IMG/VR virus record: IMGVR_UViG_3300031772_000075
DNA: 43,188 nucleotides
Direction: 5' to 3' (one strand)
Source: a virus
The notes below the pieces were generated by a model, which was not told where the DNA came from, ran no database searches, and worked only from the letters and a program-made list of their open reading frames with translations. Positions within the stretch are counted from its first letter, which is position 1. The number at the start of each line of letters is the position of its first letter. Below are positions 8,245 through 38,132 of the stretch, one piece after another. The position numbers were made by a program, and so were the translations under genes.

Positions 8245-8713
8245 CGAGTACGAGCTCACCCTGAAGACCGGGGAGCACATAGAAGTGTCCGAGTTCGCGT
8301 TCGAACGGATCCCGTCGCTCGCGCCGATCGCCGACCTCATCCCTTTCGCGGACGTCCTTCGAGGCTGCGCCGTCCTCTCGCGCGAGAGCGTCGAGGCGGC
8401 GAAGATGGGGCACGACCTGGAGCTCCGGAAGACGGTTAGGGACCCGCTCGCCGGGCTCCTGAAGGTCCTCCGGCCGGAGTGCGTCCACATCGGGGACTGC
8501 ATCATGGCCGACCGCCGGGTTTGCACGTCCAAGAACGTCACGGGGAAGCGCCGGATTCCGCCCTGCTGGGAGCACGCCTCCGAGGGGGAGCTTCAGCAGG
8601 TCGCCACCGCGGCCGTCCTGGCCTGGGCGGCCGGGCGGAGGGTCATAATCGTCGTTCCCGACCCTCAAGCTCTTCAAGCAGCTCTGTCATCAGCCGCTCC
8701 GCGCGCGGGCTGA
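8231..8713 (+). CDS. hypothetical protein (160 aa)
   Basis: ATG at 8231 overlapping the preceding gene's end. The C-terminal ~70 nt overlaps the convergent DnaJ gene, so the true end is uncertain. Confidence 0.4.
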   Translation: MILPDEYELTLKTGEHIEVSEFAFERIPSLAPIADLIPFADVLRGCAVLSRESVEAAKMGHDLELRKTVRDPLAGLLKVLRPECVHIGDCIMADRRVCTSKNVTGKRRIPPCWEHASEGELQQVATAAVLAWAAGRRVIIVVPDPQALQAALSSAAPRAG

Positions 8714-9713
8714 CGTCCTTCGACGCCCTCATCTTGAAAACGACCGTCAGGTCCCCGTCCTGCCCTGACGGGTTCTTCCACGCGCCCGGGGCGCACGACT
8801 GGCCTCCTCCAGGCGGGACTCTGACCGGGACCGCCCGGCCGTCCGGCATCCGGACGACCGTCTCCCCTCCCTTCACCATCTCCCTCACCCCTATCTCGGC
8901 CGTCGTGAACAGGGCATCGCCGCGAGCCCACCAGTTCTCGGAGTCCCGGACCTCGACCGACAGGATGAGGTCCCCGGGAGGGGATCCGACCTTCCCGAGC
9001 CCCTTCACCTTCATGTCCTGCCCGTTGCGGAGCCCCTTCGGGATCGTGACCGTTATCTCTCGCTGAACGGACTCGCTCCCGCTACCGTGGCACTCGGCGC
9101 ACTTGTTCACCTGCACGCTCCCGGAGCCACCGCACTGCCGGCACTGCCGCACGGCCGGGTTTCCTGCCACCATGTCCACGACCCGCCCGTTCCCGCTGCA
9201 CGTCGGACAGACCGCGCGCGTCGCGCGGGTGGAGCCGCACTTTCGGCACGGGCGGGTGTCTCCCCGGTCGAACCGGACGACCTTCTTCGTCCCGGTCAGG
9301 GCCTCCTCCATCGGGATGGTGACCGTGATGTGGACGTCGGCCCCCTCCGCTGGGACTGGCTTCGCCTTCCGGGCGAAGTCGGCCACGTTCCCTCCGTGGA
9401 ACGGCCCGAACGGGTCGAAGTGCTGGTTGAAGACGGAGTTCAGGTCTTCCATCGTCACCCTGAAGTTGTGACGGCCCGGCCGAGGGGGCGGGCGCGGGGG
9501 AGGAGACGCGTCCTCGTGTCCGAACATGTCGAACCGGGCCTTCTTCCCCTCGTCGGTCAGGACTTGGTGGGCGGTGTTCACCTCCTTGAACTTTGACGCG
9601 TCTCCTCCCCTGTCCGGATGGTGCTCGGCCGCGAGCTTCCGGAACGCCTTCTTGATATCGTCCTGCGAGGCCGTCCTCGGGACGCCAAGGACTGAGTAAT
9701 GGTCTTGGCTCAA
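8643..9713 (-). CDS. dnaJ: DnaJ-like chaperone (J domain, Cys-rich CxxCxGxG repeats and C-terminal domain)
   Basis: N-terminal J domain with HPD (YSVLGV...AAEHHPDRGGD). Four CxxC zinc-finger repeats (CRKCGSTRA..CPTCSGNG..CRQCGGSG..CAECHGSG). TTG start with AAGGAAG 5 nt upstream. Confidence 0.85.
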   Translation of the reverse strand: MSQDHYSVLGVPRTASQDDIKKAFRKLAAEHHPDRGGDASKFKEVNTAHQVLTDEGKKARFDMFGHEDASPPPRPPPRPGRHNFRVTMEDLNSVFNQHFDPFGPFHGGNVADFARKAKPVPAEGADVHITVTIPMEEALTGTKKVVRFDRGDTRPCRKCGSTRATRAVCPTCSGNGRVVDMVAGNPAVRQCRQCGGSGSVQVNKCAECHGSGSESVQREITVTIPKGLRNGQDMKVKGLGKVGSPPGDLILSVEVRDSENWWARGDALFTTAEIGVREMVKGGETVVRMPDGRAVPVRVPPGGGQSCAPGAWKNPSGQDGDLTVVFKMRASKDVSPRAERLMTELLEELEGRERRL

Positions 9714-15611: not shown

Positions 15612-15742
15612 GGCGTCTCCGACATACGGTACGCTCGGAATTGCTTGCAACAATCGGCATTAGCGTGCTAAACTGCACAGTATATCCTTTGGGGGGTATA
15701 CTGCGCGAGCGCGTCGCCGACAGTTTGACGGGAGAGGTGGCA
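15612..15742. promoter_or_regulatory. divergent intergenic region with candidate sigma-70-like promoter elements
   Basis: 131-bp AT-richer gap between divergent genes. On the + strand: TTGCAA, 17 bp, then extended -10-like TGcTAAACT; also TATACT near 15706. GGAGAGGTGG lies 2 nt before the ATG at 15743. Confidence 0.3.
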
Positions 15743-16435
15743 ATGGAAATCGGAAAGGTGGGCCAGCAGGCCAAGACTATTCGCGTACCCGGCAAGCCTT
15801 TGAAGAGGATCCCGGAAAAGCTGCCCTGGCCGCGGCATTCAAAGGCGGACGTGGACGAGAGCGGGAAGGTCATGCCGTCCGTCCCGCTCGGGATCGACGT
15901 CGTCGCAAAGAAGCTCGACATCACGAAGATCGTGCACAAGTTCTTCCGCGTGGAAGGGTACTCGATGGAGGAGCTCCTACAGGAGGTCTTCGTCGCTATC
16001 ATCCACAAGAACTGCACGCGCTCGGCCCACAATCCGAACAAGAGCTCTTTCGGCCACTATGTCTACATGGTGGCCAACAACGTGTGCGTCAACCTGGTGC
16101 ACAAGAAGCGCCGCTACGATCGTGAGAAGGACTCCATCGACGCGCCCGTGAGCGCCGACGACGCGAGGTCCATCCTCGACACCGTCGAGGACCTGAACGC
16201 CCGGCAGGAGCCCGACGCGTTCACGGAGAAGATGGAGGAGTTCGAGCACGCCCTCCGGATGAAAGGAGAGTGGGACCTGGCCCGCTACATCCGCGCTGTC
16301 CGCTCCGGGGCGAGCGCCGACGTCGTCCGCGAGTCCCTGTCGTTCGGTGAGCGCAAGGTCACCACCAAGACAATCCGCGACTTCAAACAGCGGATTCCGG
16401 CCGCCGTCCGGCTCATCGCAGCGACGCTGAGCTAG
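15743..16435 (+). CDS. ECF-like (sigma-70 family region 2 + region 4) sigma factor
   Basis: EELLQEVFVAIIHK...SSFGHYVYMVANNVCVNLVHKKRR resembles sigma region 2.1-2.2 of ECF sigmas (..F.TWLY.IARN..ID.LR.RRR). A C-terminal HTH-like segment is also present (ESLSFGERKVTTKTIRDFKQRI). ATG with a strong SD; the tabulated TTG start at 15641 was rejected. Confidence 0.6.
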   Translation: MEIGKVGQQAKTIRVPGKPLKRIPEKLPWPRHSKADVDESGKVMPSVPLGIDVVAKKLDITKIVHKFFRVEGYSMEELLQEVFVAIIHKNCTRSAHNPNKSSFGHYVYMVANNVCVNLVHKKRRYDREKDSIDAPVSADDARSILDTVEDLNARQEPDAFTEKMEEFEHALRMKGEWDLARYIRAVRSGASADVVRESLSFGERKVTTKTIRDFKQRIPAAVRLIAATLS

Positions 16436-18027: not shown

Positions 18028-18353
18028 TGGACCTATGTGAAGCCTGGCGCCTTTTCGGCCGCGACCTACCCTCCATCGTGGCCGACGCCCGGGCCCGGAA
18101 GAGGGATCAGAGGATGCCCTTCTTGGACGGCCTACTGGAGGAGGCAAAGAAGACCAGGAAGGCTCTGCTTGCCAAGCACCACCCGGACCGGGGTGGGGAC
18201 CCCTCGCAGTTCAAGCGGGTCGAGGACGCCTTCCAGGCCATTGAGAAGGGGACCGAGGAGGCCAGACAGGGCTTCCGGGAGGCCGACGAGAAGCGGGTGG
18301 CGGACCGGGAGAGCAAGCGCTCAGTCTTCATTGACGTGGACCCGCTAAAGTGA
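18024..18353 (+). CDS. J-domain-only protein
   Basis: KALLAKHHPDRGGDPSQFKRVEDAFQAIE is a J-domain helix II-III with HPD. No Zn-finger or C-terminal domains. Confidence 0.65.
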   Translation: MMDLCEAWRLFGRDLPSIVADARARKRDQRMPFLDGLLEEAKKTRKALLAKHHPDRGGDPSQFKRVEDAFQAIEKGTEEARQGFREADEKRVADRESKRSVFIDVDPLK

Positions 18354-19123
18354 ACATTCTTTCATGCGTCCAGTTCCAGCCTCGTTTCGCCAGATGCCCG
18401 GCGGACGTGTCGGACAACGTCAGGCGCTCAGCTCCCCTCATACACGAGGCGGGCCGCGTCGGGTCCCAGCTCATCGTCTTTCCCGAGCTGGCCTTCACCG
18501 GATACTCGTTCCTCGACCGCGACCAGGCCGCCGCCGTCGCCGAGGCGCTCGACGGCATGACGTTCCGGGCCATGCGGGCGGTCGCCGTTGAGCTGAAGGC
18601 CTACGTCGCCTGGGGCTACGTCGAGTCCGCGGAGGGCAGGCTTCACAACTCCTGCTCCATGGTCGGTCCGGACGGCGCCCTCGTCTCCAGTTACCGGAAG
18701 ATCAACCTTTGGGGCAACGACTTTCTTTGGGCCTCACCCGGGAGGGAGCCTGCCCCGATAGTCCAGACCGAGCTTGGTCGGACGTCGGTGATCATATGCC
18801 GGGATCTTCGGGACAAGGTCCCGACGAACATCCCCATCATGGCTTCGAAGAAGCCTCAGCCCTTCTGGAAGGCCCAGAAGGTGGACGTCGTGGCCGCCTG
18901 CCTCAACTGGGGGAAGGGAGGGTTCCCGTCGACGACCTGGATGGACTTCGCCGCCGACAACGAGTGCACCCTGGCCGTCGCCAACCGTTGGGGCGCCGAG
19001 GAGAACGGGACCTTCCGTCAAAGCTTCGGGCAGGGCGGCTCCTGCGTCATCCGCCCCGACTGGACGGTCCACACCGGCGGCTTGAAGTTCAACCAGGACT
19101 GCGTCGTCTCCGCCAGCTATTGA
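18350..19123 (+). CDS. carbon-nitrogen hydrolase (nitrilase superfamily)
   Basis: Catalytic triad contexts are present: LIVFPELAFTGY (Glu), YRKINLW (Lys), VIICRDL (Cys). GTG start overlapping the previous stop (GTGA). Confidence 0.75.
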   Translation: MNILSCVQFQPRFARCPADVSDNVRRSAPLIHEAGRVGSQLIVFPELAFTGYSFLDRDQAAAVAEALDGMTFRAMRAVAVELKAYVAWGYVESAEGRLHNSCSMVGPDGALVSSYRKINLWGNDFLWASPGREPAPIVQTELGRTSVIICRDLRDKVPTNIPIMASKKPQPFWKAQKVDVVAACLNWGKGGFPSTTWMDFAADNECTLAVANRWGAEENGTFRQSFGQGGSCVIRPDWTVHTGGLKFNQDCVVSASY

Positions 19124-23053: not shown

Positions 23054-23237
23054 CCTCCGAGAGTACAGCGGCTGCGTCCACCTGCTCCGGCGTCAGGTCG
23101 TTGATGGTGACTGACGCCCCCCGGGCCGCGAACTCGCCGAGGAGCTGCTCGGCCTCGGGCCTTGTCATCATCGCGTGACGGACGACCGTGTCGCCCTCGT
23201 CGTCGACGTACTCGATGGAGTGGAACCTCTTGCTCAC
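23004..23237 (-). CDS. possible small protein (77 aa), GTGA-coupled to the pcp-like gene
   Basis: A GTG start overlaps the pcp stop. The tail is protein-like (VSKRFHSIEYVDDEGDTVVRHAMMTRPEAEQLLGEF...). The remainder of the tabulated 267-aa ORF is an R/P/G-rich artefact. Confidence 0.3.
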   Translation of the reverse strand: MSKRFHSIEYVDDEGDTVVRHAMMTRPEAEQLLGEFAARGASVTINDLTPEQVDAAAVLSEDGEDPRLEATAGGRLK

Positions 23238-23881
23238 CGTGCACCGTGCTGGGACCGGTACCACTGGGAGACCTGCCCGACGAGGGCCACCGAAGCCTCG
23301 ACGATGCCGGAGAACGAGGCGGTCGACCAAAGCTCGTCCTCGATGACGCCGAAGTCGTTTGGAAACGCGACGTGTATGAAGCCGGCGGCCACGAAGTGAG
23401 GCTGGGGGACGGTCGCCAGATGGTGCAGGACTCCGTACATGAGGGAGTTGCAGACGTGGGTTCCGGCCGAATAGGAAAGCTTGCTGGACACGCCCATTTC
23501 GTTCAGCCTTTCCACGAGGCTGGCGGCCGGGATGGTGGGCTCGTACGCTGGAGGGCCTCCTCGCACGGCGGGCCTGTCCTGGACGGGGATTCGGCTGTTG
23601 TCGCCCATCGGGGAGCGCTCGACGTTGATCGCGAACCGCTCTACCCTCAGGGGGTCGTTCTTCTGAGTGGCTCCGAACATGAGGACGGCGTTCGGCTGAA
23701 AGGCCCCCATCTCCGTGACGAGGATCTCGGTGCTCTTGCCATAGAGCTGAGGGAGGACCAGGCCGCGGACCTCGACTCCCGGGACGGAGACCGCCCCCTC
23801 GTGCCACAGCTTGGCCAGGTCGCCGCTCGGCGAGCGCCTAATCCCCCAGATTGGCTCGAAGCCGGTCAGGACGACCTTCAC
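23234..23881 (-). CDS. pcp: pyroglutamyl-peptidase I (pyrrolidone-carboxylate peptidase, C15)
   Basis: VKVVLTGFEPIW...ERFAINVERSPMGDNSRIPVQDRPAVRGGPPAYEPTIP...SYSAGTHVCNSLMYGVLHH matches Pcp throughout (MKVLVTGFEPF...ERVAIN.DDARIPDNEG..P.D.PI...GPAAYFSTLP...SNTAGTFVCNHLFYG.MH). GTG start with AGGA upstream. The tabulated N-terminal 108 aa were rejected. Confidence 0.8.
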   Translation of the reverse strand: MKVVLTGFEPIWGIRRSPSGDLAKLWHEGAVSVPGVEVRGLVLPQLYGKSTEILVTEMGAFQPNAVLMFGATQKNDPLRVERFAINVERSPMGDNSRIPVQDRPAVRGGPPAYEPTIPAASLVERLNEMGVSSKLSYSAGTHVCNSLMYGVLHHLATVPQPHFVAAGFIHVAFPNDFGVIEDELWSTASFSGIVEASVALVGQVSQWYRSQHGAR

Positions 23882-23923
23882 TCCGATCCTGTACCATAGG
23901 AGTTTGATGGGAGCGTTCTTTCG

Positions 23924-24262
23924 ATGGAGCCTACTGTCCTGTCCGAACACCTCAAGAAGCTGGCCGGCCTCATCGACCGGTCTGAGGCTCCGAGCGCGAA
24001 GGCCGTTCAGGCCGAGCTGGAGCACGTCGTCGCGTCCCTCGAAGGGCGGCAGGCGGCGAAGCTCAACAAGTTCATGGACAAGGACTTCGAGGGCGCCCTC
24101 GACGGGCTCGACAACCTCATCAAGAAGCTCGACAAGACTTCCCGGACCCTGAACCCCCAGGACGAGGGGAAGGCCGAGATCGAGGAGTCGCTGACGGTGC
24201 TCCATCAGCTCCGCAACAGCGTCAAGAGCACGGTCGACGGACTTGAGTCCGTGAACGTTTAG
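23924..24262 (+). CDS. hypothetical coiled-coil protein (112 aa)
   Basis: ATG. K/E/D-rich, heptad-like composition. Divergent from pcp. Confidence 0.5.
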   Translation: MEPTVLSEHLKKLAGLIDRSEAPSAKAVQAELEHVVASLEGRQAAKLNKFMDKDFEGALDGLDNLIKKLDKTSRTLNPQDEGKAEIEESLTVLHQLRNSVKSTVDGLESVNV

Positions 24263-25055: not shown

Positions 25056-25505
25056 TCAGTTCGCGGCGTGATGAAGCTGCACGGGCGCCTTCCGCCGCGC
25101 CTTCCGCCCGCCCTGCTTACGCTTCACGGCAGTGTAGGCGACGTTCTCCGGCTGGAAGTGCCTCTCCAACGTGGCCCTTGCCTTCGCCTCGTCGAACGAC
25201 TTGCAGCTGAACACGTCCATGGAGAAGTGGCGCCGGAGGGGCCACACGTGGACGGAGATGTGGCTCGTCCCGATCATGCAAATCCCGGAGATTCCGCCCT
25301 CGTCCTGGAAGACGTCGCCCGTGAGCTTTTTCGGCTCAAGCTTCACCTTCTTGAACAGCGGACCGAAGATCAGCTGCATGTCGAGGACCTTCACCAGGTC
25401 GAGCATCAGGGTCGTGAGCCCTGCCTTGGAAAATGCTGCTTCGATCCTTCGCTCCGGGACTTGTCCGTCGGCGATGAGGTGAAGTCCGTCGATCACATTG
25501 GCCAT
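25056..25505 (-). CDS. speD: S-adenosylmethionine decarboxylase proenzyme (small pyruvoyl-dependent SpeD/SpeH type)
   Basis: GISGICMIGTSHISVHVWPLRRHFSMDVFSCKSF matches the processing-site region of the small bacterial/archaeal type (..V.ESHL.IHTWPE.GYAA.DVFTCG). About 150 aa, as expected for this type. Confidence 0.7.
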   Translation of the reverse strand: MANVIDGLHLIADGQVPERRIEAAFSKAGLTTLMLDLVKVLDMQLIFGPLFKKVKLEPKKLTGDVFQDEGGISGICMIGTSHISVHVWPLRRHFSMDVFSCKSFDEAKARATLERHFQPENVAYTAVKRKQGGRKARRKAPVQLHHAAN

Positions 25506-25551: not shown

Positions 25552-25860
25552 CTACTTGATCATCTCAAGCGAGAGAGTGTCCGGGGAGAGCGTGAGGTCC
25601 TCATGGCCCTTCTGAGCCTCAGCGTCCTCCGAGCAGTACCAGACCCCGTTCACCATCTTCAGCGGCCCGGATCCAAACCTCAAGCCTCGCGTCGGCGACA
25701 TTCCGACCCACTTGGCAACTTTGGGCAGGAAAAGAGCCTGAACGTCCTTGAAGTCCGCGATGCTCATCTTGGACCCAGGGTCTCCGAGGTCCTGGACGGT
25801 CATAAGCACAAGCTGACCATCGCCAACGGCGCTCCAGTCAAAGCTCTCGAACGACCTCAC
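25552..25860 (-). CDS. hypothetical protein (102 aa)
   Basis: ORF with protein-like composition, divergent from the Dps-like gene. Confidence 0.4.
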   Translation of the reverse strand: MRSFESFDWSAVGDGQLVLMTVQDLGDPGSKMSIADFKDVQALFLPKVAKWVGMSPTRGLRFGSGPLKMVNGVWYCSEDAEAQKGHEDLTLSPDTLSLEMIK

Positions 25861-25908
25861 GTTGCGACGTTACACCCCGGTGGGGCTTTTGTCGGACCTC
25901 CTTGGCGC

Positions 25909-26409
25909 ATGGCTAGGAACGATTATATCCTGAGGGTCGCATCCCGGATCGCAAACGTGCCCGCCCGGGAAGGCCAGTTCGCGGCCCCGGACGGCCAGGT
26001 CGTCGCCCACCTTCAGAAGTTCCTGAACGCCAAGTACGCCATCGACATCGCGTACCGGAGCTTCGCCGACCGCGTGAAGGGACCGTGGAGGGACGCCCTC
26101 GTCTCCCACTGGCAGGAGCACGCCAAGGAGGAGAGGGACAGCGCCTACGACCTGGCGATGAAGCTCGTCGGGCTCGGGGCCGATCCTATCCAGACGGCCG
26201 TCCAGGTGCCCGCGTGCCCGGCCAACGTCTTCGCGTTCTGCAAGGCCCTCATAGAGCTTGAGCTCAAGGCCATCGAGAACTCCAGGAGGCTTATCGTCCT
26301 CGCGGGCGACAACACTGCCATGAAGGTCCTCGCCGAGAACGTCATCCTCGTCGACACCCAGCATCTCGACGACCTTCGGCGCATGTGCTTGGAGACGGCC
26401 GGATTATGA
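25909..26409 (+). CDS. Dps/ferritin-like four-helix-bundle protein
   Basis: HLQKFLNAKYAIDIAYRSFADRVKGPWRDALVSHWQEHAKEERDSAYDLAMKLVGLGADP and ELKAIENSRRLIVLAGDNTAMKVLAENVI resemble Dps helices A-B and D. ATG at 25909; the tabulated 25603 start overlaps the opposite gene and was rejected. Confidence 0.55.
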   Translation: MARNDYILRVASRIANVPAREGQFAAPDGQVVAHLQKFLNAKYAIDIAYRSFADRVKGPWRDALVSHWQEHAKEERDSAYDLAMKLVGLGADPIQTAVQVPACPANVFAFCKALIELELKAIENSRRLIVLAGDNTAMKVLAENVILVDTQHLDDLRRMCLETAGL

Positions 26410-26966: not shown

Positions 26967-27589
26967 AGACGATGAAGACACTGCTTTGCCTCCTGGCCGC
27001 CCTCGCGGTCCTCTTGGCCCCCGTGGTCGTGCTCGCTCAGCCCGCGCCGGCGCAGAAATGCGAAGGCCCTGCAGAGCTCTGCGCCCAAATCCTTGACCTC
27101 AAGGGCAAGCTCGACGCTCAGAAGGCCCTGACGGACCAGAAGGGCGCCGAGAAGGACACGGCGAAGGCCGAGACCACGACGACGGTCCTCAAGACGGAGA
27201 AGAGGGACGCTGAGGGCGTGGCGAAGATGCTCGCCTTCGCGGCGATCCTCGCCATCGCCCTCAAGACGCTCGTGTCCGTCTTGAAGTCTTGGAAGGGGTT
27301 CTTCACCACCGACAAGCAGAAGGCATGGCTCAAGATCTCCATGCTGGTCGTCGGCCTCCTCGCGTTCCTCGCGTCGAACATCGGCTTCGGGATACCGTGG
27401 TGGCAGTCGGTCATCCTGGCTGGCGGAGGCCCCGGCGCCATCATGGTTCACGAGCTGACGAAGCTCATCCCCGTCCTCATGGGGAAGGCCAAGTACACGT
27501 CGGAGTCCGAGAAGCCGCCGCCGATGCCTGCGGACGAGGAGAAGCCCGAGCCGAAGCCCGCTGACGAGCCGAAGCCGCCGGCCGCCTAA
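26963..27589 (+). CDS. secreted/membrane protein with signal peptide and two predicted TM helices
   Basis: MKTMKTLLCLLAALAVLLAPVVVLAQPAPA is signal-peptide-like. AAGGAAAC RBS; ATGA overlap with the previous gene. Two TM helices and a Pro/Glu/Lys-rich tail. Confidence 0.5.
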   Translation: MKTMKTLLCLLAALAVLLAPVVVLAQPAPAQKCEGPAELCAQILDLKGKLDAQKALTDQKGAEKDTAKAETTTTVLKTEKRDAEGVAKMLAFAAILAIALKTLVSVLKSWKGFFTTDKQKAWLKISMLVVGLLAFLASNIGFGIPWWQSVILAGGGPGAIMVHELTKLIPVLMGKAKYTSESEKPPPMPADEEKPEPKPADEPKPPAA

Positions 27590-28920
27590 GCCGTCAGAGC
27601 GCGCTTCCGCTTGGCGTGAGTGTGCTCCTCCGAACTGGGAAGCTTTTGGCCGCATTCAGAGCACACCTGGATTGCGGCCATCTTCTTATCCAGGGCCTTC
27701 TTGACCCCCTGGAGCCGGGAGAGCTCCGCGTCAGCCCCGTCGACGGCCGACTTCAGCTCCCGGAGCTTTTGAGCGCACAGGACGAGCTTCCGGAGCCTCA
27801 GGACCTCGGCCTCCGGGAGCTTCGGGACCGCAGGGAGAGCGTCCACCCGCGCGGCGGCCTTCCGGCCCCTGACCAGCCCGGCGTGCAGCCTGGAGAGCTG
27901 CCGGACGCGGCTCACGGACTCCCCGATTGAGGACAGGTCCGGGACCTTCATCTTCGACTTTTGGACCGCGGCCGACCGGTCTATGAAGGAGCGCATGGGG
28001 ACGAGCCTCATGCAGCGGCGGAGCCTCCGGAGACTTTCCACGTCCGGCAGCTCTGGGACCTTGACCGAGTCTACGGGCTTGAGCGATATGATCTTCTGGA
28101 CCGTTCGGTCGAGGCGGAACTTGGCCCTGGCGACGCGGACGCTCCGGGACACAGTCGCCTCCACGTCGGTGAGGTTCGCCTTGACCTTCAGGTCCGAAGC
28201 CGCCTTGGACCTCCTGAGGAGGTCGGCGACCCTCTCCAGGTCCTTGTGGAGCTGCTCCAGGGTGATGGCCCGCTGGGCATACTCCTGGAGGCTGGCTATC
28301 TGCTCCTCAATCTCGGACTCCAGCCGTTCGACGGACTCCAGCCCGGATAGCTTGTTGAGCCGGTCCTGGACGCGGCCTAGCTCCTCGGACTTCGTCCGTG
28401 ACTCGTCCGTGCACTTGCGCTTCGACCTCGCGGCCAGGACTATGGCGTTCTGGTAGACCTGGAGGCGGGAGACCTCGGAGATGAAGTTGGTGATCTGGGG
28501 TCCCGACTTGTCGAGCAGGAACATTGGGCGCGTCTGCGTCGCCCACCACGGCTCCAGGTCGTCATCCCCTATGCGGATCGACCTGAAGCCCATGGCTTCC
28601 ACCTCCGGGAGCTGGTTCTGCCCGGTCTTGTCGTACGTCTTCCCGCCAATCTGGTAGCGGTTGACGTCCTTTTCGCCCTTCTCCCAGAGGAAGCCCCAGC
28701 CCTCGGACTGCATCTCGACGGACGAGTACTTCGCGCCCTTTCGGACCATGCCGGTCACCGGGTCGTTGAGGAGAGACCGGGAGATCGCCCTCATGATGGC
28801 GCTCTTCCCGATGTTCGTCTTGCCCGTGATGCACGTGAAGCCCCTCACCTCGAACTCCACGTCCTCGATGCTCTGGAAGTTCCGGATGTGTACCTGGACG
28901 GGATGGAGGGTGGAGGTCAT
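27586..28920 (-). CDS. SMC/Rad50/SbcC-like N-terminal ATPase half with coiled coil, ending at a CxxC zinc-hook-like motif
   Basis: VHIRNFQSIEDVEFEVRGFTCITGKTNIGKSAIMRAIS is the SMC/RecF-type N-terminal Walker A. About 300 aa of coiled-coil-like sequence follow. The C-terminus is CSECGQKLPSSEEH. No signature, Walker B or D-loop half is present. ATG at 28920 preferred over the GTG at 28935. Confidence 0.65.
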   Translation of the reverse strand: MTSTLHPVQVHIRNFQSIEDVEFEVRGFTCITGKTNIGKSAIMRAISRSLLNDPVTGMVRKGAKYSSVEMQSEGWGFLWEKGEKDVNRYQIGGKTYDKTGQNQLPEVEAMGFRSIRIGDDDLEPWWATQTRPMFLLDKSGPQITNFISEVSRLQVYQNAIVLAARSKRKCTDESRTKSEELGRVQDRLNKLSGLESVERLESEIEEQIASLQEYAQRAITLEQLHKDLERVADLLRRSKAASDLKVKANLTDVEATVSRSVRVARAKFRLDRTVQKIISLKPVDSVKVPELPDVESLRRLRRCMRLVPMRSFIDRSAAVQKSKMKVPDLSSIGESVSRVRQLSRLHAGLVRGRKAAARVDALPAVPKLPEAEVLRLRKLVLCAQKLRELKSAVDGADAELSRLQGVKKALDKKMAAIQVCSECGQKLPSSEEHTHAKRKRALTA

Positions 28921-28944
28921 CCGCGCAGTATACACCCGCCGGGG

Positions 28945-30294
28945 TCAGTCGAGGTCCTCGGACGAGATCTTCGGGACCTCCCCGACGCTGTCGTCCTCCT
29001 CTCCCATCTCCTCGGGTGAGACCTCGCGGGGGTCGTCCGAGCGCGAGTAGTCCTCATCCTCATCGTCGCCCATCTTCGTCACGACCGCGCCGGCCTCCAG
29101 CTCGGCAAGCTCGTCGTCCGTGATGTTGCGCATGTCCGCGAGCATGCGCTCGTGGCAGGTCGTAGCCATATCCTTGAAGGTCTCCAGGTCCTTGGACAGG
29201 GCGTACCGGAACTTCTCCAGCCCGATGACCTCTATCGTGTTGCCGTTCGTCGTCCCCTTGTAGGCGTAGACGTCCTGCTTGCGTCCGTTCTTGGAATGCT
29301 TGCAGATCTTGTACGCGGTCGCGACGTTGATCATCGTCCGGATCTCGTCGATGCCGACGCCGTACCGGATGGTGACGAGGCCCGTGTGGCCCTGCTTGGC
29401 GTCGACCTTGTTCTTGACGTTCTTGACCTCGACGTCCGTGGCGACCGGGACCTCCTCCTCCTTGCCGATGAGCGGGTTGAACCGCTTGGCCTTCGCGACC
29501 TGGCGCGGCTTGAGGATCATGCGGTTGGAGGCGAAGAACTTCAGGGTGTTGCCGCCCGTCGTGCTCTTGAGGGCCTCCTCCGTGAAGCCCTTGGCCCCGA
29601 TCTTGTCGCGCGTCTGGTTGAGGAACATGACGTGCGTCCCGGTCTTTGCGATGATGGACTGGAGTTTCGGGAGCCACGTCGCCATGAAGCGCGGGACCTC
29701 GGCAATGCCCTTCTTGTCCTCCACGTCGGAGGCGTCGCGCTCGAACTCCTTGCGGGTGACGAGGGCGGCGACCGAGTCGATGACGATGAAGTCGATCTTC
29801 TGGATGCAGGCGGCGTTGACGGCCGCCTCCACCTGCTCGGCGTAGGTCGGGGCGATCCGCATGCACTGGCCCGTACCGCCCATCGACGGAGGCCTGAAGT
29901 CGCAGCCGAGCTTGATGGCGTAGTTGTCGACGATGGCGTGCTCAAGGTCGACGTAGAGGCCGGTCCCGGTGCCGCCATTCTCCAGGAGCGCCTGCGCCAT
30001 AGCCATGAGGGCGATAGTGGACTTGCCGGACGACTCACGGCCGAAGATTTCGGAGATCTTCCCCCGCGGCCACCCCGGGCAGACGAGGTTCCCGTTCGGG
30101 AGCTTGGACCCCCCGATGAGGAGGTTCAGTACGGAAGACCCGCTGTTGATGACCTTGAGCTGCAGATCGGGCTTGACGATGGCGTCGGCCATGCCGAGCC
30201 GCTCCGTCATGTTCTTCTGCAGCATCGCCAGCTTCTTGTGCCACCCGCCGGGCGGCGGTACCGCAGCTGCGCCGTTCGTTCCGTTCTTCGCCAT
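28945..30294 (-). CDS. recA: RecA-like recombinase
   Basis: SGSSVLNLLIGGSKLPNGNLVCPGWPRGKISEIFGRESSGKSTIALMAMA matches the RecA N-terminal core plus Walker A. Acidic C-terminal tail. ATG with GGAGG 9 nt upstream; the tabulated GTG at 30303 is less likely. Confidence 0.85.
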   Translation of the reverse strand: MAKNGTNGAAAVPPPGGWHKKLAMLQKNMTERLGMADAIVKPDLQLKVINSGSSVLNLLIGGSKLPNGNLVCPGWPRGKISEIFGRESSGKSTIALMAMAQALLENGGTGTGLYVDLEHAIVDNYAIKLGCDFRPPSMGGTGQCMRIAPTYAEQVEAAVNAACIQKIDFIVIDSVAALVTRKEFERDASDVEDKKGIAEVPRFMATWLPKLQSIIAKTGTHVMFLNQTRDKIGAKGFTEEALKSTTGGNTLKFFASNRMILKPRQVAKAKRFNPLIGKEEEVPVATDVEVKNVKNKVDAKQGHTGLVTIRYGVGIDEIRTMINVATAYKICKHSKNGRKQDVYAYKGTTNGNTIEVIGLEKFRYALSKDLETFKDMATTCHERMLADMRNITDDELAELEAGAVVTKMGDDEDEDYSRSDDPREVSPEEMGEEDDSVGEVPKISSEDLD

Positions 30295-30333
30295 CGTCGT
30301 CACCTCCGTAACAGGTTACAGTGAGTAGAGAGC

Positions 30334-31050
30334 CTACTCTTCAAGAGACTCTAGGTAGGTCAGCACGTCCGCGCTGATGGCGGACTTGGCGGGAAGGCTG
30401 ACGTTCCCTCGCGGTACTTGGCTGAAGCGGAAGAAGCGCGAGTTCTCCCGAAAGGCGTAGCCGACCCGCTTTTTCTTCCTACCGAGGCCGGACTTCACGG
30501 ACTTCGTCCTCTCCACGAAGCACCGGAGCTCCGTCCCAGTCAGGTCCTCCGGGCGGATGAGGCCCGTCACCAGGGACTTCATGCGCGCAGCGTAGCGGGC
30601 GACCTGGTAGGCGTCGGCCTCGTTGTTGTCGATGACCTTCGTGTCCATCGTGTCGACCTGCACTTTGCGCTGCATGTCGAGCTTGCCCATCGCCCCCTTC
30701 TTCGCCGGGTCCTCGCGGGAGAGGTACTTGAGGGTCGACGGGTCGAACATGACGACGTCCTTTCGGGCCTCGAAGATGGGCACTAGCGAGAACATCATCA
30801 GGCCGAAGTGAATGGACTGGAACGGGCCGGCCTCGTACGCCGGGCTCTCGATGCCGACCACGTCCACGTCGTGCTTGGACAGGAGGTCCTTCACCATGGC
30901 CTGGAAGTGGAGGAAGCGCGCGACCGGGACGGTGGACGGGAGGGTGCCCTCGTGGCCCGAGGCGACCCTCCGCTTCATCCCCTTCGCCGAGTCGTCGTGG
31001 GTCGACCATCCGTAGGCGCGCAGACTTGGATCTAGGCCCAATGCTATCAT
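30334..31050 (-). CDS. ruvC: RuvC-like Holliday-junction resolvase
   Basis: MIALGLDPSLRAYGWS (first catalytic Asp context), VVGIESPAY (Glu) and EADAYQVARYAA (C-terminal Asp) match the RuvC/A22 RNase-H-fold resolvase motifs. Confidence 0.7.
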   Translation of the reverse strand: MIALGLDPSLRAYGWSTHDDSAKGMKRRVASGHEGTLPSTVPVARFLHFQAMVKDLLSKHDVDVVGIESPAYEAGPFQSIHFGLMMFSLVPIFEARKDVVMFDPSTLKYLSREDPAKKGAMGKLDMQRKVQVDTMDTKVIDNNEADAYQVARYAARMKSLVTGLIRPEDLTGTELRCFVERTKSVKSGLGRKKKRVGYAFRENSRFFRFSQVPRGNVSLPAKSAISADVLTYLESLEE

Positions 31051-31163: not shown

Positions 31164-32072
31164 TCAATCTATCAGACTCCCGTAGCTACCGACCATCTTC
31201 GGCCTGTCCTCGTTCGCGCCGCTCGCCATTGCCGCCGGGCTCTGTCCGACCTTCTCCAGGTACTGCTGGAGCTTCAGCTCCATCCCGAGGTTGTTCGGGC
31301 AGTGCTTCGCGGCGCGGAGCCCCTGGTCGAGGATCCAGGCCCGGCTCTCCGGGTCGAAGTCCTCGCGGGCCCAGAAGCAATTGGCCGTCTCGTAGATGTG
31401 CTTCTTATACTTCGGGTCGCCGTCGAGCGTGACCTTGAGGTCCATCCGCTCCTTGCCCTCCTGGCGGGCCTCGACAAAGCACCCCTCCAGGCGGTTATAC
31501 TGCTTGGCCGAGAGCTTGTAGAGCAGGATCTCCGTGTAGAGGCGCTGCTTGATCATGTCCATGTTCGGCTGCATGTGCTCGCCGACCGGGTACTTCATGA
31601 CGATGGTGACCGTGCGCTGCTCGGCGTCGCCCATGTCGTCGCAGCACTTGCCGGCCTCGACGAGGGTTGAGCCCTTGTAGACGCCCATGCAGCGCATCGT
31701 GCCGACGCCGTCCTTGAAGTGGGTGAAGCCCATCCAGAACTTCGGCATCGTGGTGTCGAGGCGGTCGATCTCCTTGAGGTCCTTGACCTCCTTGCTGAGC
31801 CTCTCCGCCAGCTTCTTGTCGATGTTGGCGAGGATCTCCAGCTTCTCCTGGTCGGTGAAGAGCGCGAGCGAGAGCGGCTTCTTCGCCTTCTCCTCGTCCG
31901 TGAAGTTACCCCAGCGCTCCTGGGCCTTCTTGGTGAGGATTCCGTCCGAGTACTTCTTGAACGCGATCAGCGAGATTCGCGCCTTGCCGTTCTTTTCGAG
32001 CTTGAACTCGTCGATGCCCGAGTTCTTGATGACCTTCCCGTCGTCGAAGCCAAACTCCATTACGTCGCTCAT
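31164..32072 (-). CDS. hypothetical protein (302 aa)
   Basis: ATG (MSDVMEF...) with GGAGA 7 nt upstream. The tabulated start 10 codons upstream contains that SD and was rejected. Ends ...MVGSYGSLID. Confidence 0.5.
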   Translation of the reverse strand: MSDVMEFGFDDGKVIKNSGIDEFKLEKNGKARISLIAFKKYSDGILTKKAQERWGNFTDEEKAKKPLSLALFTDQEKLEILANIDKKLAERLSKEVKDLKEIDRLDTTMPKFWMGFTHFKDGVGTMRCMGVYKGSTLVEAGKCCDDMGDAEQRTVTIVMKYPVGEHMQPNMDMIKQRLYTEILLYKLSAKQYNRLEGCFVEARQEGKERMDLKVTLDGDPKYKKHIYETANCFWAREDFDPESRAWILDQGLRAAKHCPNNLGMELKLQQYLEKVGQSPAAMASGANEDRPKMVGSYGSLID

Positions 32073-32225
32073 GTGGTCTCTCCTTGTTTGTTTGCCGGCC
32101 AAGGCCGGCGCGTCTACTGCTTGTTTGCCCGCCGAGGCGAGCGCGTCGGAGCCCCCGGTTGCCCGGGTGTTCCTTGAAAGACACTACATTCAAGGGCTAC
32201 GGCCTGCGCTCAGTCTCGAACAGGG

Positions 32226-33203
32226 CTAGTCGATGAGGTCCTGATATGAGACCGTCTTGGCCTGCGGGACGTTCGGCTCGGGCTCTGGAGGGCTCTCGGG
32301 CTCGCCTCCCTCCATCCGGGTGTCCGCTCCGCCGTGCCCGTTCTTGCAGAACGGTCCGGACGGTGAAAAGGACTGCTGACTATCGCAGTCCGAGCACATG
32401 CCCCTGTGCCCCTTGGAGCAGACGAGGGGCATGTTCGGGTTGAGCTTGACCTCCTCGTCGCACGTCCCGCACGTCCATGTCGGGTAGCGGGTCGGGTGCT
32501 GTGTCAAGAACGCGGACATCATCTTCGCGTGCTCGCTGTCCATCGGCTCTGGCATGTCGTCAGGCCGTTTCTTCGGGTCGAGGAGGTCCTGTGGCTCCAC
32601 CCTCGGGATCACGGGGGCTGGCATCCCGTCCGCCACCAGCTTTTTCTGGTTGGACTGCGGGCGCTGATATCCGTCGCCACCCATCATCTGGGACTCTTTG
32701 TCGTCCTTGATGAGGACGCGCTGCATGCGGATGTCGTTCGACGTCTGCTTCAGCTGGTCGTACTTGGACCGAATGAGCTTGACGGTCTCCTCCACGTCGA
32801 GGAGCTCAACCTTCAGGGCGCTGACAGCCTTGTGCTCCTCGCCGAGCATCGTCGCGGCGACGGACTCGCGGTCGCGGACGGACGGCTGCTTTCGCACGAC
32901 CACGTCGTCGGCGAGGAGCTCCTTCATCTTGAACTCCAGGTCGAGATCCCGGTGACGAAGGTCGAGCCGGATCTTCTTCTCGTGAAGCTTGACGATCTGG
33001 AGGTAGTACTGGACCCTGTTCTGGTAGGCCCGGCAGCGCGAGATGATCTTCTGGAGGTAGGCCGTGCCCAGGTGGGGCAGAGTCGGGTCCTCCTCCAGGT
33101 TCACCTCGTACAGGGCCATCTCCTCGATGATCTGTTCGAGCTGCTCCTTGGTGAGAGTCACCCCAGCGGTCGCGACCGGGTTCCCAACGTGCGTAGAGTC
33201 CAT
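32226..33203 (-). CDS. hypothetical coiled-coil protein with C-terminal Cys/His-rich zinc-finger-like cluster (325 aa)
   Basis: N-terminal heptad-like region. WTCGTCDEEV...CSKGHRGMCSDCD...CKNGH. Ends ...KTVSYQDLID. Confidence 0.5.
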   Translation of the reverse strand: MDSTHVGNPVATAGVTLTKEQLEQIIEEMALYEVNLEEDPTLPHLGTAYLQKIISRCRAYQNRVQYYLQIVKLHEKKIRLDLRHRDLDLEFKMKELLADDVVVRKQPSVRDRESVAATMLGEEHKAVSALKVELLDVEETVKLIRSKYDQLKQTSNDIRMQRVLIKDDKESQMMGGDGYQRPQSNQKKLVADGMPAPVIPRVEPQDLLDPKKRPDDMPEPMDSEHAKMMSAFLTQHPTRYPTWTCGTCDEEVKLNPNMPLVCSKGHRGMCSDCDSQQSFSPSGPFCKNGHGGADTRMEGGEPESPPEPEPNVPQAKTVSYQDLID

Positions 33204-37031: not shown

Positions 37032-38132
37032 TCACACGGCCTCCGGAAGGTACTCGGAGAGGGTACGTCCGACCATGCGGCCACGGAGCTTCTTGAGAGC
37101 CTTCTCCTCTATCTGCCGGATTCTCTCACGGGACAGGTCGTAGCGGTCAGCGACCTCCTGGAGCGTCAGCTGGCCCGTGTCGTCGATTCCGAACCTGTGC
37201 CGGATGACGCGGGACTCGAACGGGTTGAGGCCTGAGAGGAGCGAGAGCAGCTCGTCGTTGGCCTCCGCCGAGAACAGGCTGTCGAGCGGGCTCGGGAACG
37301 TCTCCGACGTGAGCGTGTCCAGGAGGCAGAATCCCTCCTCCTCACCTGCCGGGGCGTCGAGGTGAAGGACCCTCTGCCGGCTCAGGAGCGCGGTCAGGAC
37401 CTTCTCGACGCTGATCTTGGCCGCCTTCGCCATCTGGTCCGGGTCCATGCCCGTCCCGTTCTCCGCCATGTGCCCGCCGTCCAGGCGCGAGAGCTTTTGG
37501 GCGAGCTCGCTCATGTGGACGGGGATGCGTATCGGGCCCTCCTTGTCCGAGACGGCCCGCTTGACGTGATGCCGAATCCACCAGACGGCGTACGTCCCGA
37601 ACCGGAACCCGCGGTCGACGTCGAACCGGTCGACCGCCCGCATGAGCCCGATGTTCCCCTCCTGAATAAGGTCGCCCAGGGTCTGGTGATGGCAAAGCCT
37701 GGCGTACTTCTTCACGATCGTGACGGTGAGGCGAAGGTTCGCCGTCACAAACTCGTTCTTGATGCGCTCTCGCCTGGCGTTCAGGCCTCCGACGCGACGG
37801 TCCTTAGACCCGACCGCGGCCGTCAGGCACTCCTGAAACCAGGTCCGGCCGGAGTCCGTGAGCCGGACGAACCGGACGACGTCCCTGTGAAGCCCGGACT
37901 TGTTGAACAGCCTGGCGGGAAGGTGAACCTCGTCCTCCTTCCCTGCGGCGGCCCTCAGGCTTGACTCGCTGGCCTTGTCCTTCAGGAAGGCCGCCACCAT
38001 GTCCGACTCGACGGTCATGAGCTTTCGGAACGTCGCCGTCTCCTCCTCGAAGGTCGGGACGGAGACCTCAGACATGCTGGAGAAGTACTTCGTAAGCGCG
38101 TTCCCGGGAGCGGTTTTCGCGTTCGAGGACAT
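37032..38132 (-). CDS. RpoD/RpoS-like sigma-70 family sigma factor (regions 1.2/2/3/4)
   Basis: ANLRLTVTIVKKYARLCHHQTLGDLIQEGNIGLMRAVDRFDVDRGFRFGTYAVWWIRHHVKRAV is near-identical in pattern to the RpoD region 2 consensus. Region 4.2 is LTLQEVADRYDLSRERIRQIEEKALKKLR. ATG preceded by AGGTGG. Confidence 0.85.
   Translation of the reverse strand: MSSNAKTAPGNALTKYFSSMSEVSVPTFEEETATFRKLMTVESDMVAAFLKDKASESSLRAAAGKEDEVHLPARLFNKSGLHRDVVRFVRLTDSGRTWFQECLTAAVGSKDRRVGGLNARRERIKNEFVTANLRLTVTIVKKYARLCHHQTLGDLIQEGNIGLMRAVDRFDVDRGFRFGTYAVWWIRHHVKRAVSDKEGPIRIPVHMSELAQKLSRLDGGHMAENGTGMDPDQMAKAAKISVEKVLTALLSRQRVLHLDAPAGEEEGFCLLDTLTSETFPSPLDSLFSAEANDELLSLLSGLNPFESRVIRHRFGIDDTGQLTLQEVADRYDLSRERIRQIEEKALKKLRGRMVGRTLSEYLPEAV

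Follow-up and report, generated by a model that had tools for sequence, protein, structure and literature searches.

The 43,188-nucleotide stretch of viral DNA analysed here (IMG/VR record IMGVR_UViG_3300031772_000075; hereafter the window) has a GC content of ∼63% and resembles the replication/recombination region of a large phage. Three open reading frames (ORFs) lie in tandem on its minus strand at 27586-31050, with a GC content at third codon positions (GC3) of 0.90–0.94, just where a first-pass annotation had placed a Rad50/SbcC-like half-protein, a RecA-like recombinase and a RuvC-like resolvase. That annotation also gave the RuvC-like protein its correct length of 238 residues, but the 449 residues that it allotted to RecA are those of the Rad50-like protein, RecA itself having 452. 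The 449-residue product, termed here the N-half (27586..28935, minus strand), is the subject of this work: it is probably the N-terminal subunit of a naturally split, two-chain Rad50/SbcC-type ATP-binding cassette (ABC) ATPase.

The N-half matches the Pfam family AAA_23 (PF13476, 1.1e-8), the 'SbcC-like' PHROG family phrog_77 (1.2e-12) and phrog_16465 (3.2e-9), the second of these matches spanning the middle and hook part of the model (positions 452–647 of 967). An alternative start, an ATG at 28920 (M6, MTSTL...), is the one used by homologues. ATPase lobe I occupies residues 13–155 (28471..28899, minus strand) and contains a Walker A motif, G38-K-T-N41-I-G43-K44-S45 (28801-28824, minus strand), which is invariant or nearly so. 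The residues that never vary in an alignment of 87 sequences are Q21, G38, N41, G43, K44, R49, R65, W84, Q134, F139, L140, C425 and C428. Among them, Q134 (28534-28536, minus strand) lies ∼20 residues ahead of the helical arm and is a putative Q-loop, assigned by position only. The protein has no signature motif, Walker B or H-loop, and family alignments contain no conserved acidic or signature residues past position 160. As Walker A and Q134 are invariant and the later motifs are absent, the ATP site is retained in an incomplete form.

Homologues of the N-half are uniformly short. A word-indexed search returned 101 proteins, all of 300–456 aa and many of them encoded on contigs of 100–440 kb, and among 1.84 billion cluster representatives, all scanned with HMMER, at least 1,765 clusters (50% identity) match at E ≤ 1e-30. 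The best 150 clusters are all 220–478 aa long and, among the full-length ones, the profile stops at the protein C-terminus. Length is kept in hundreds of clusters down to ∼20% identity. Judged by these sequence comparisons, the half-size architecture is a stable trait of the family. The gene in the window has a GC3 of 0.90, comparable to that of the adjoining genes, and ends at a TAG (27586-27588) that overlaps a convergent gene.

The AlphaFold2 (AF2) model of the N-half, with a predicted local distance difference test score (pLDDT) of 82.5, comprises a confident alpha/beta head at residues 13–155, where ten-residue blocks mostly score 76–97, and a helical arm at residues 158–421 (27673..28464, minus strand). 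The arm consists of a 90-residue helix and four further helices of 25–47 residues (H158-247, H255-288, H299-323, H334-366 and H375-421), parted by short proline-containing loops (..VKVPELP.., ..MKVPDLS.., ..LPAVPKLP..); such 'hydrophobic-x-hydrophobic-P' breaks repeat in the family alignment. The best fold matches found by Foldseek in the PDB are the N-terminal chains of Pyrococcus furiosus Rad50 (9a9j_A and 1f2u_C). The top PDB sequence match of the N-half profile, to Leptospira leucine-rich-repeat proteins, was judged an artefact of periodic leucines, the AF2 model being helical throughout.

Behind the arm comes a zinc-hook-like CxxC, C425-S-E-C428 (27652..27663, minus strand), which is followed by ..EEHTH.. 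up to the stop and sits 25 residues from the C-terminus. Of 115 relatives taken from fetched loci, 111 have a CxxC 7–26 residues from the end, with the consensus (L/I)G.CPTC.(Q/R)P. Both cysteines are invariant in an alignment that reaches 19% identity, so that the conservation of the motif is evidently far beyond chance. We take the CPTC consensus to be like the CP(V/T/L)C of the hooks of Rad50, SbcC and gp46; the N-half profile also matches Rad50 hook crystal structures weakly (6zff_A, E 0.006; 1l8d_A, 0.017). There is no descending arm in the chain, and the hook is terminal instead of capping an antiparallel coiled coil formed within one polypeptide. The first-pass description of an SMC/Rad50-type N-terminal lobe with an arm ending at CxxC is thus borne out by the AAA_23 and phrog_77 matches, the Rad50 N-terminal fold and the invariance of C425 and C428, and the alternative raised with it, a RecF/RecN-type domain or an AAA_23 domain devoid of a hook, fails because the hook is conserved. 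A few distant members lack the terminal CxxC, namely L003 (gp155 of Microbacterium phage Magritte), L082, L086/L087 and L165. As Magritte still retains a gene for the complementary lobe (gp2, see below), the hook does not seem to be obligatory for the split head.

The complementary half came to light in relatives. When 50,697 phage records were searched by tblastn with the N-half, just three matched: LR745208 (485 kb, uncultured), Tunturiibacter phage Tunturi_5 (309 kb) and Magritte. The gene order in Tunturi_5 is single-stranded DNA-binding protein (SSB), RuvC, UvsX, ..., gp181 ('exonuclease', 485 aa, end ..LCGKCGDP..), with an SbcD-like gene 1.5 kb downstream of gp181. At a distance of ∼110 kb from gp181 lies gp14 ('ATPase', 222 aa), in which a coiled-coil helix is followed by ..FGGG.., ..MVCDE.. 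and ..AVTHQP.., corresponding to a signature-like motif, Walker B and H-loop, respectively. A tblastn search with gp14 matches the same three phage records, plus two weak matches in Bacillus phages. The gene for this C-lobe is found 7 kb downstream of the N-half in LR745208 (458257-458892), and the C-lobes of Tunturi_5 (gp14), LR745208 and Magritte (gp2) are all ∼210–222 aa long and bear GG / DE / (V)TH motifs. Another Tunturi_5 product, gp23 ('exonuclease recombination-associated protein'), was considered as the second half and rejected, since it has no ABC motifs and no Pfam match; the actual partner is gp14.

C-lobes form a stand-alone family of ∼210-aa proteins with 681 matches, the 120 matches listed being 166–272 aa long, in which the GG, the DE and the T/H of VTH are conserved. 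The AF2 model (pLDDT 90.5) shows a single helix at residues 3–78 and an alpha/beta lobe; its best fold matches in the PDB are to C-terminal P. furiosus Rad50 chains (3qkr_B, 1ii8_B, 1f2u_D and 9a9j_B, E 1.8e-9 to 5.6e-8). Between them, N-half and C-lobe thus match the two complementary chains found together in these Rad50 entries. They are likewise complementary on single-chain models: on phrog_77 the C-lobe takes up positions 851–933, beyond the stretch covered by the N-half, and on PADLOC LmuB (611 positions) the N-half maps to 8–345 and the C-lobe to 436–593. The first-pass annotation had expected a second coiled-coil arm plus lobe. This was not what emerged: the partner is a short helix stub plus lobe, and the arms are not symmetric.

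Gene linkage ties the two halves together. Scanned with the N-half alignment, IMG/VR yielded 78 loci, nearly all on contigs of 60–450 kb, and in 64 of them the C-lobe gene is located 3.5–6 kb downstream of the N-half on the same strand. When representative loci are annotated with Pfam, PHROG and profiles, a conserved eight-gene array emerges: RuvC-like protein, RecA, N-half, a Metallophos (SbcD/Mre11-like) phosphoesterase, a PD-(D/E)XK (Cas4-like) nuclease, a ∼97-aa coiled-coil protein, a ∼380-aa protein and the C-lobe. In relatives the C-lobe is always preceded by the Mre11/SbcD-like gene (Metallophos 3e-13; phrog_100 SbcD-like 1e-15), in the same operon or on the same contig. The N-half stop overlaps the Mre11 start in several loci, and the RecA stop overlaps the N-half start in L026, L018 and L004; in the window the RecA stop falls 9 nt before the N-half start. 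The genes of the two halves are linked across more than 100 loci, and the two families co-occur almost perfectly.

Two further members of the array deserve mention. The ∼380-aa protein, which has no Pfam or PHROG match, is a divergent homologue of the beta sliding clamp (Thermotoga maritima DnaN, 1vpk_A, E 4.7e-10); its gene lies between those for the 97-aa protein and the C-lobe (L001:14494-15627, L018:15132-16265, L026:13288-14451) and was seen in 137 fetched loci, duplicate and overlapping fetches included. The ∼97-aa protein, with coiled-coil-type Pfam matches, is encoded in 136 loci (for example L026:12982-13275, L018:14827-15132 and L002:9462-9755, the last being Tunturi_5 gp180, which comes directly after the N-half). 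This protein might form a third segment of the arm.

The loci closest to the window (L004/L005 and L010-L021, 31–40% identity) constitute a subclade with the same flanks: p325, p312, RuvC, RecA and N-half, then genes for a ferritin-like protein and an S-adenosylmethionine (AdoMet) decarboxylase on the other strand. With the sole exception of L018, these loci have no C-lobe within 10 kb. IMG/VR scans with C-lobe queries, including a five-sequence alignment, located it further away: all seven subclade contigs of at least 200 kb carry an intact block of Mre11, PD-(D/E)XK, 97-aa coiled-coil protein, clamp and C-lobe, 28–220 kb from the N-half on the same contig. N-half and C-lobe are positioned, respectively, at ∼49 and ∼78 kb in 3300032053_000004, ∼93 and ∼200 kb in 3300027754_000034, ∼133 and ∼289 kb in 3300032233_002382, ∼86 and ∼275 kb in IMGVR_UViG_3300012980_000004 (the contig most syntenic with the window), ∼96 and ∼300 kb in 3300036987_000310, ∼162 and ∼381 kb in 3300032782_000001, and ∼52 and ∼276 kb in 3300028920_000001. 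The C-lobe scan gave no match on four subclade contigs: two, identical in locus GC and ORF coordinates to contigs with a match, appear to be shorter versions of these, and the others measure 63 and 139 kb.

Within the 43-kb window, as the first-pass annotation had observed, neither the second half nor an Mre11/SbcD is encoded. No C-lobe was detected in any frame by a six-frame regular expression for signature plus Walker B, by tblastn with Tunturi_5 gp14 or by a C-lobe hidden Markov model (HMM), and no Mre11/SbcD phosphoesterase by tblastn with Tunturi_5 gp177 or by profile search. The most economical reading, drawn from the relatives, is that the phage of the window also carries the Mre11 to C-lobe block, outside these 43 kb. 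The suggestion of a split Rad50 with its second half elsewhere, one of two readings put forward in the first pass beside a novel hook-terminated tether, is in this way supported through relatives, namely the 64 of 78 loci and the seven long contigs, and extended by inference to this genome.

A scheme of the assembly can be proposed. The N-half would supply lobe I (Walker A and putative Q-loop), the long helical arm and its own C-terminal CxxC zinc hook, and the separate ∼210-aa protein would supply lobe II (signature-like FGGG, Walker B DE and H-loop VTH) behind one N-terminal helix. The two lobes would associate, and the C-lobe helix would pair in antiparallel fashion with the beginning of the N-half arm, rebuilding the head and a coiled-coil base at which the Mre11/SbcD-like phosphoesterase could dock and be activated. 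ATP would then engage two N-half/C-lobe heterodimers, whose two terminal CxxC hooks would share one zinc ion. Such a complex would process (resect) and tether DNA ends, feeding strand invasion by the adjacent RecA-like protein and resolution by the RuvC-like one in the setting of phage recombination-dependent replication. The distal ∼200 residues of the arm might fold back, pair in parallel with the arm of a second N-half or be accompanied by the 97-aa helical protein. A real change of architecture, with arms that are single-chain past the stub, two N-half arms zipped in parallel (possibly together with the 97-aa protein) and one Zn(Cys)4 hook, is conceivable, though we would not expect it. 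If true, the Rad50 ring would contain half as many arm helices as usual. On this reading, the co-expression of the subclade hook chain with RecA and not with Mre11 hints at a second tethering role that needs no nuclease.

Several observations weigh against a split Rad50/SbcC. The block of Mre11, PD-(D/E)XK, 97-aa protein, clamp and C-lobe is wholly absent from the window when searched with iterated profiles, and it is possible that this phage has lost the partner. The hook homology is weak at sequence level (E 0.006–0.017), and the motif in the window is CSEC, not CPxC. The predicted template modelling score of the N-half model is 0.45 and the arrangement of the helices is not fixed by it. Furthermore, the C-lobe helix (76 residues, part of which is probably packed on the head) is far shorter than the N-half arm (∼265), which leaves most of that arm without an obvious antiparallel partner, unlike every solved Rad50.

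The alternative that survives best, albeit as an improbable one, is that the N-half of the subclade acts without a C-lobe, as a stand-alone, zinc-dimerized helical tether or mediator that binds ATP or DNA through lobe I and, for example, bridges DNA ends or loads the translationally linked RecA. It would account for the constant company of RuvC–RecA, apart from the Mre11/C-lobe block, for the overlap of the RecA stop with the N-half start in relatives and for an arm that mostly has no evident antiparallel partner. However, an invariant Walker A and Q134 make little sense unless Walker B and a signature are provided in trans, the C-lobe is intact on every sufficiently long subclade contig and the two families co-occur almost perfectly.

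It is more doubtful still that the N-half belongs to a different SMC-like or ABC ATPase, of RecN/RecF type, of the OLD/Gabija/Septu AAA_15 type or a Lamassu LmuB-like component of defence or anti-defence. Its P-loop region does match Old, GajA, AriA, PtuA and RecN, and the LmuB match (5e-9) extends over residues 15–436. Yet the OLD, GajA and RecN matches are limited to the first ∼40–60 residues (those of OLD, Gabija GajA and AAA_15 cover only 14–55 and those of RecN are confined to 9–74), no Toprim or other effector domain stands behind the arm and no LmuA/LmuC genes are neighbours. Instead, the genes conserved alongside it, in a replication/recombination region, encode RecA, RuvC and nucleases of Mre11-like and Cas4-like type, and the best fold matches are Rad50 chains. 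A role in a defence system was rejected in view of the recombination context and the partial PADLOC coverage. Finally, a truncated, frameshifted or decaying Rad50/SbcC gene fragment, or an assembly error, might be suspected from the missing half of the canonical domains and the partial phrog_77 match, but this notion, which includes the frameshift into a C-terminal half envisaged earlier, can be discarded given the conserved length, the GC3 of the gene, the stop codon overlapping a convergent gene and the failure of all window frames to show homology to a C-lobe.

Textbook accounts make the function of Rad50/SbcC dependent on an antiparallel coiled coil that forms within one chain and has a zinc hook at its apex. 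The phage pair resembles Rad50, SbcC and T4 gp46 in several respects. Its lobe I has a Walker A and a putative Q-loop and is joined to a helical arm that bears a CxxC hook, and its lobe II carries the signature, Walker B and H-loop; an Mre11-type partner, present in relatives (the counterpart of Mre11, SbcD and gp47), and the placement in a recombination module are likewise shared. The pair differs in being encoded by two genes, tens to hundreds of kb apart in the subclade of the window, in bearing the hook at the C-terminus of chain 1 and not at an apex between two arms, in a returning arm cut down to one helix, which stands at the N-terminus of the C-lobe and is modelled with 76 residues, in a signature that reads FGGG and not LSGGE, and in the segmentation of its arm by proline-containing breaks. 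In functional terms the pair would be a Rad50/SbcC-Mre11/SbcD system, but it departs from the family in two defining features: its lobes are on separate chains, and its hook does not crown an antiparallel arm.

The nearest structural precedents are engineered. In the two-chain P. furiosus Rad50 entries (1F2T/1F2U, 1II8, 3QKR and 9A9J), one ATPase head is built from two polypeptides, an N-terminal and a C-terminal fragment; chains A/C are matched by the phage N-half and chains B/D by the C-lobe. The catalytic domains of 1F2T/1F2U were reportedly expressed as separate N- and C-terminal fragments, on which account a two-chain head would be physically viable. Those constructs are laboratory truncations without arm and hook, whereas the phage split is natural and its chain 1 keeps the full arm and hook. 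Lamassu LmuB and mads mad3 have a comparable single-chain architecture onto which N-half and C-lobe map complementarily; they are, however, single polypeptides, found in bacterial defence islands with LmuA/LmuC, while the phage context is RecA/RuvC/Mre11. RecN and RecF are set apart by the hook of the N-half and by its want of a lobe II.

The two genes upstream of the N-half encode the other members of the tandem. The RecA/UvsX-like recombinase (452 aa; 28945..30303, minus strand) matches PF00154 at 1.1e-38 (133.7 bits against a gathering cutoff of 27) and phrog_97 at 8.6e-48. Its TIGR02012 score of 146.8 bits falls under the equivalog cutoff of 325.3, by which measure it is not an equivalog of bacterial RecA. 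It has an N-terminal extension and, as noted in the first pass, an acidic C-terminal tail, with ..SSEDLD as its last residues. The RuvC-like Holliday-junction resolvase (30334..31050, minus strand) scores 14 bits with Pfam RuvC, under the cutoff of 22.2, and matches the RuvC-like phrog_159 at 1e-11; its carboxylates D7, E68 and D146 are kept in 64 of 66 relatives. The C-terminal extension bears RFFRFS and ..LTYLESLEE. The first belongs to a family-wide 'RFFRFS.LP', the second to a tail 'L(T/E)(Y/W)LESLEE' added in the subclade of the window and similar to the conserved 'AL.YLE.A' tail of Mre11-like proteins in related loci. The resemblance may point to a common binding site.

Further upstream, p312 (31164..32102, minus strand) has 35 homologues in related loci, invariably upstream of RuvC-RecA-Nhalf. 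It gave no match in Pfam, PHROG or NCBIfam; it is the positional counterpart of the annotated SSB of Tunturi_5 and has a weak BLASTP match to gp185 (4e-4). p325 (32226..33203, minus strand), with a coiled coil and a Cys-rich C-terminal region, has 70 homologues at the same position in related loci. The two proteins have a C-terminal tail motif in common: in the window the tails read ..SYGSLID (p312) and ..SYQDLID (p325), beside the ..SSEDLD of RecA. Their relatives in loci L010-L087 share an acidic-aromatic tail, 'SY(D/E)DL(L/I)x' in the subclade and '(D/E)DF(S/N)D(V/I)L.N(V/L)' elsewhere. The tails of p312, p325 and RecA look like a common C-terminal docking peptide, for which the beta clamp of the Mre11/C-lobe block is a candidate receptor.

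The remainder of the window encodes a DnaB-like helicase, a DnaG-type zinc ribbon, a family A DNA polymerase and a dCTP deaminase. Amid this phage replication region, a 907-aa ORF (3478-6201, plus strand) matches Major Vault Protein (MVP_shoulder 1.3e-24, Vault_3 8.4e-7, weak Vault repeat and SPFH); these are eukaryotic-type domains, unusual for a phage. Host-like auxiliary genes are also present, encoding a full-length DnaJ (J domain, Zn-finger region and C-terminal domain), two sigma-70-type factors, AdoMet decarboxylase, a ferritin-like protein, a pyroglutamyl peptidase and a CN hydrolase. Their coordinates are 8643-9713 (minus), 15641-16435 (plus), 37032-38132 (minus), 25056-25505 (minus), 25603-26409 (plus), 23234-24205 (minus) and 18350-19123 (plus). 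The order ferritin, AdoMet decarboxylase, peptidase, YfbR, CN hydrolase is kept in the P0046 locus.

Variation in the gene architecture of this complex among viruses is on record: in Mimivirus-type Mre11/Rad50 the two subunits are fused (PMC3175470), whereas the phage case is a fission of one subunit. Fold matches in BFVD bring up a further instance, the 'recombination exonuclease' of Listeria phages LMTA-148 / LMTA-57, which is 275 aa long in A0A068C7W3 as against 1009 aa in A0A068CB47. This almost four-fold gap in length suggests that Rad50-like genes have been split independently elsewhere, perhaps through introns or mobile elements. A survey of jumbo phages describes SbcC/SbcD as practically universal and treats SbcC as a single ABC ATPase; the available portions of that article contain no mention of a split SbcC (Iyer et al. 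2021, PMC7824862). A search of the literature, with most subscription journals outside its scope, found no description of a natural split of Rad50, SbcC or gp46.

Both halves currently go under generic database names, such as phrog_16465 'exonuclease' and phrog_15167 'ATPase', exemplified by Tunturi_5 gp181/gp14 and Magritte gp155/gp2, and some entries are called 'hypothetical'. Owing to these labels, surveys could score such phages as lacking an intact SbcC. Pairing the two halves corrects the annotation, and the eight-gene array stands out as a conserved recombination module of huge phages. The analysis also points to a large and diverse phage lineage, of at least 1,765 clusters almost always on contigs of 60–450 kb, in which the hook lies at a chain terminus and the returning arm is a stub: a natural experiment on the purpose of the arms, on communication between head and hook and on how little arm suffices.

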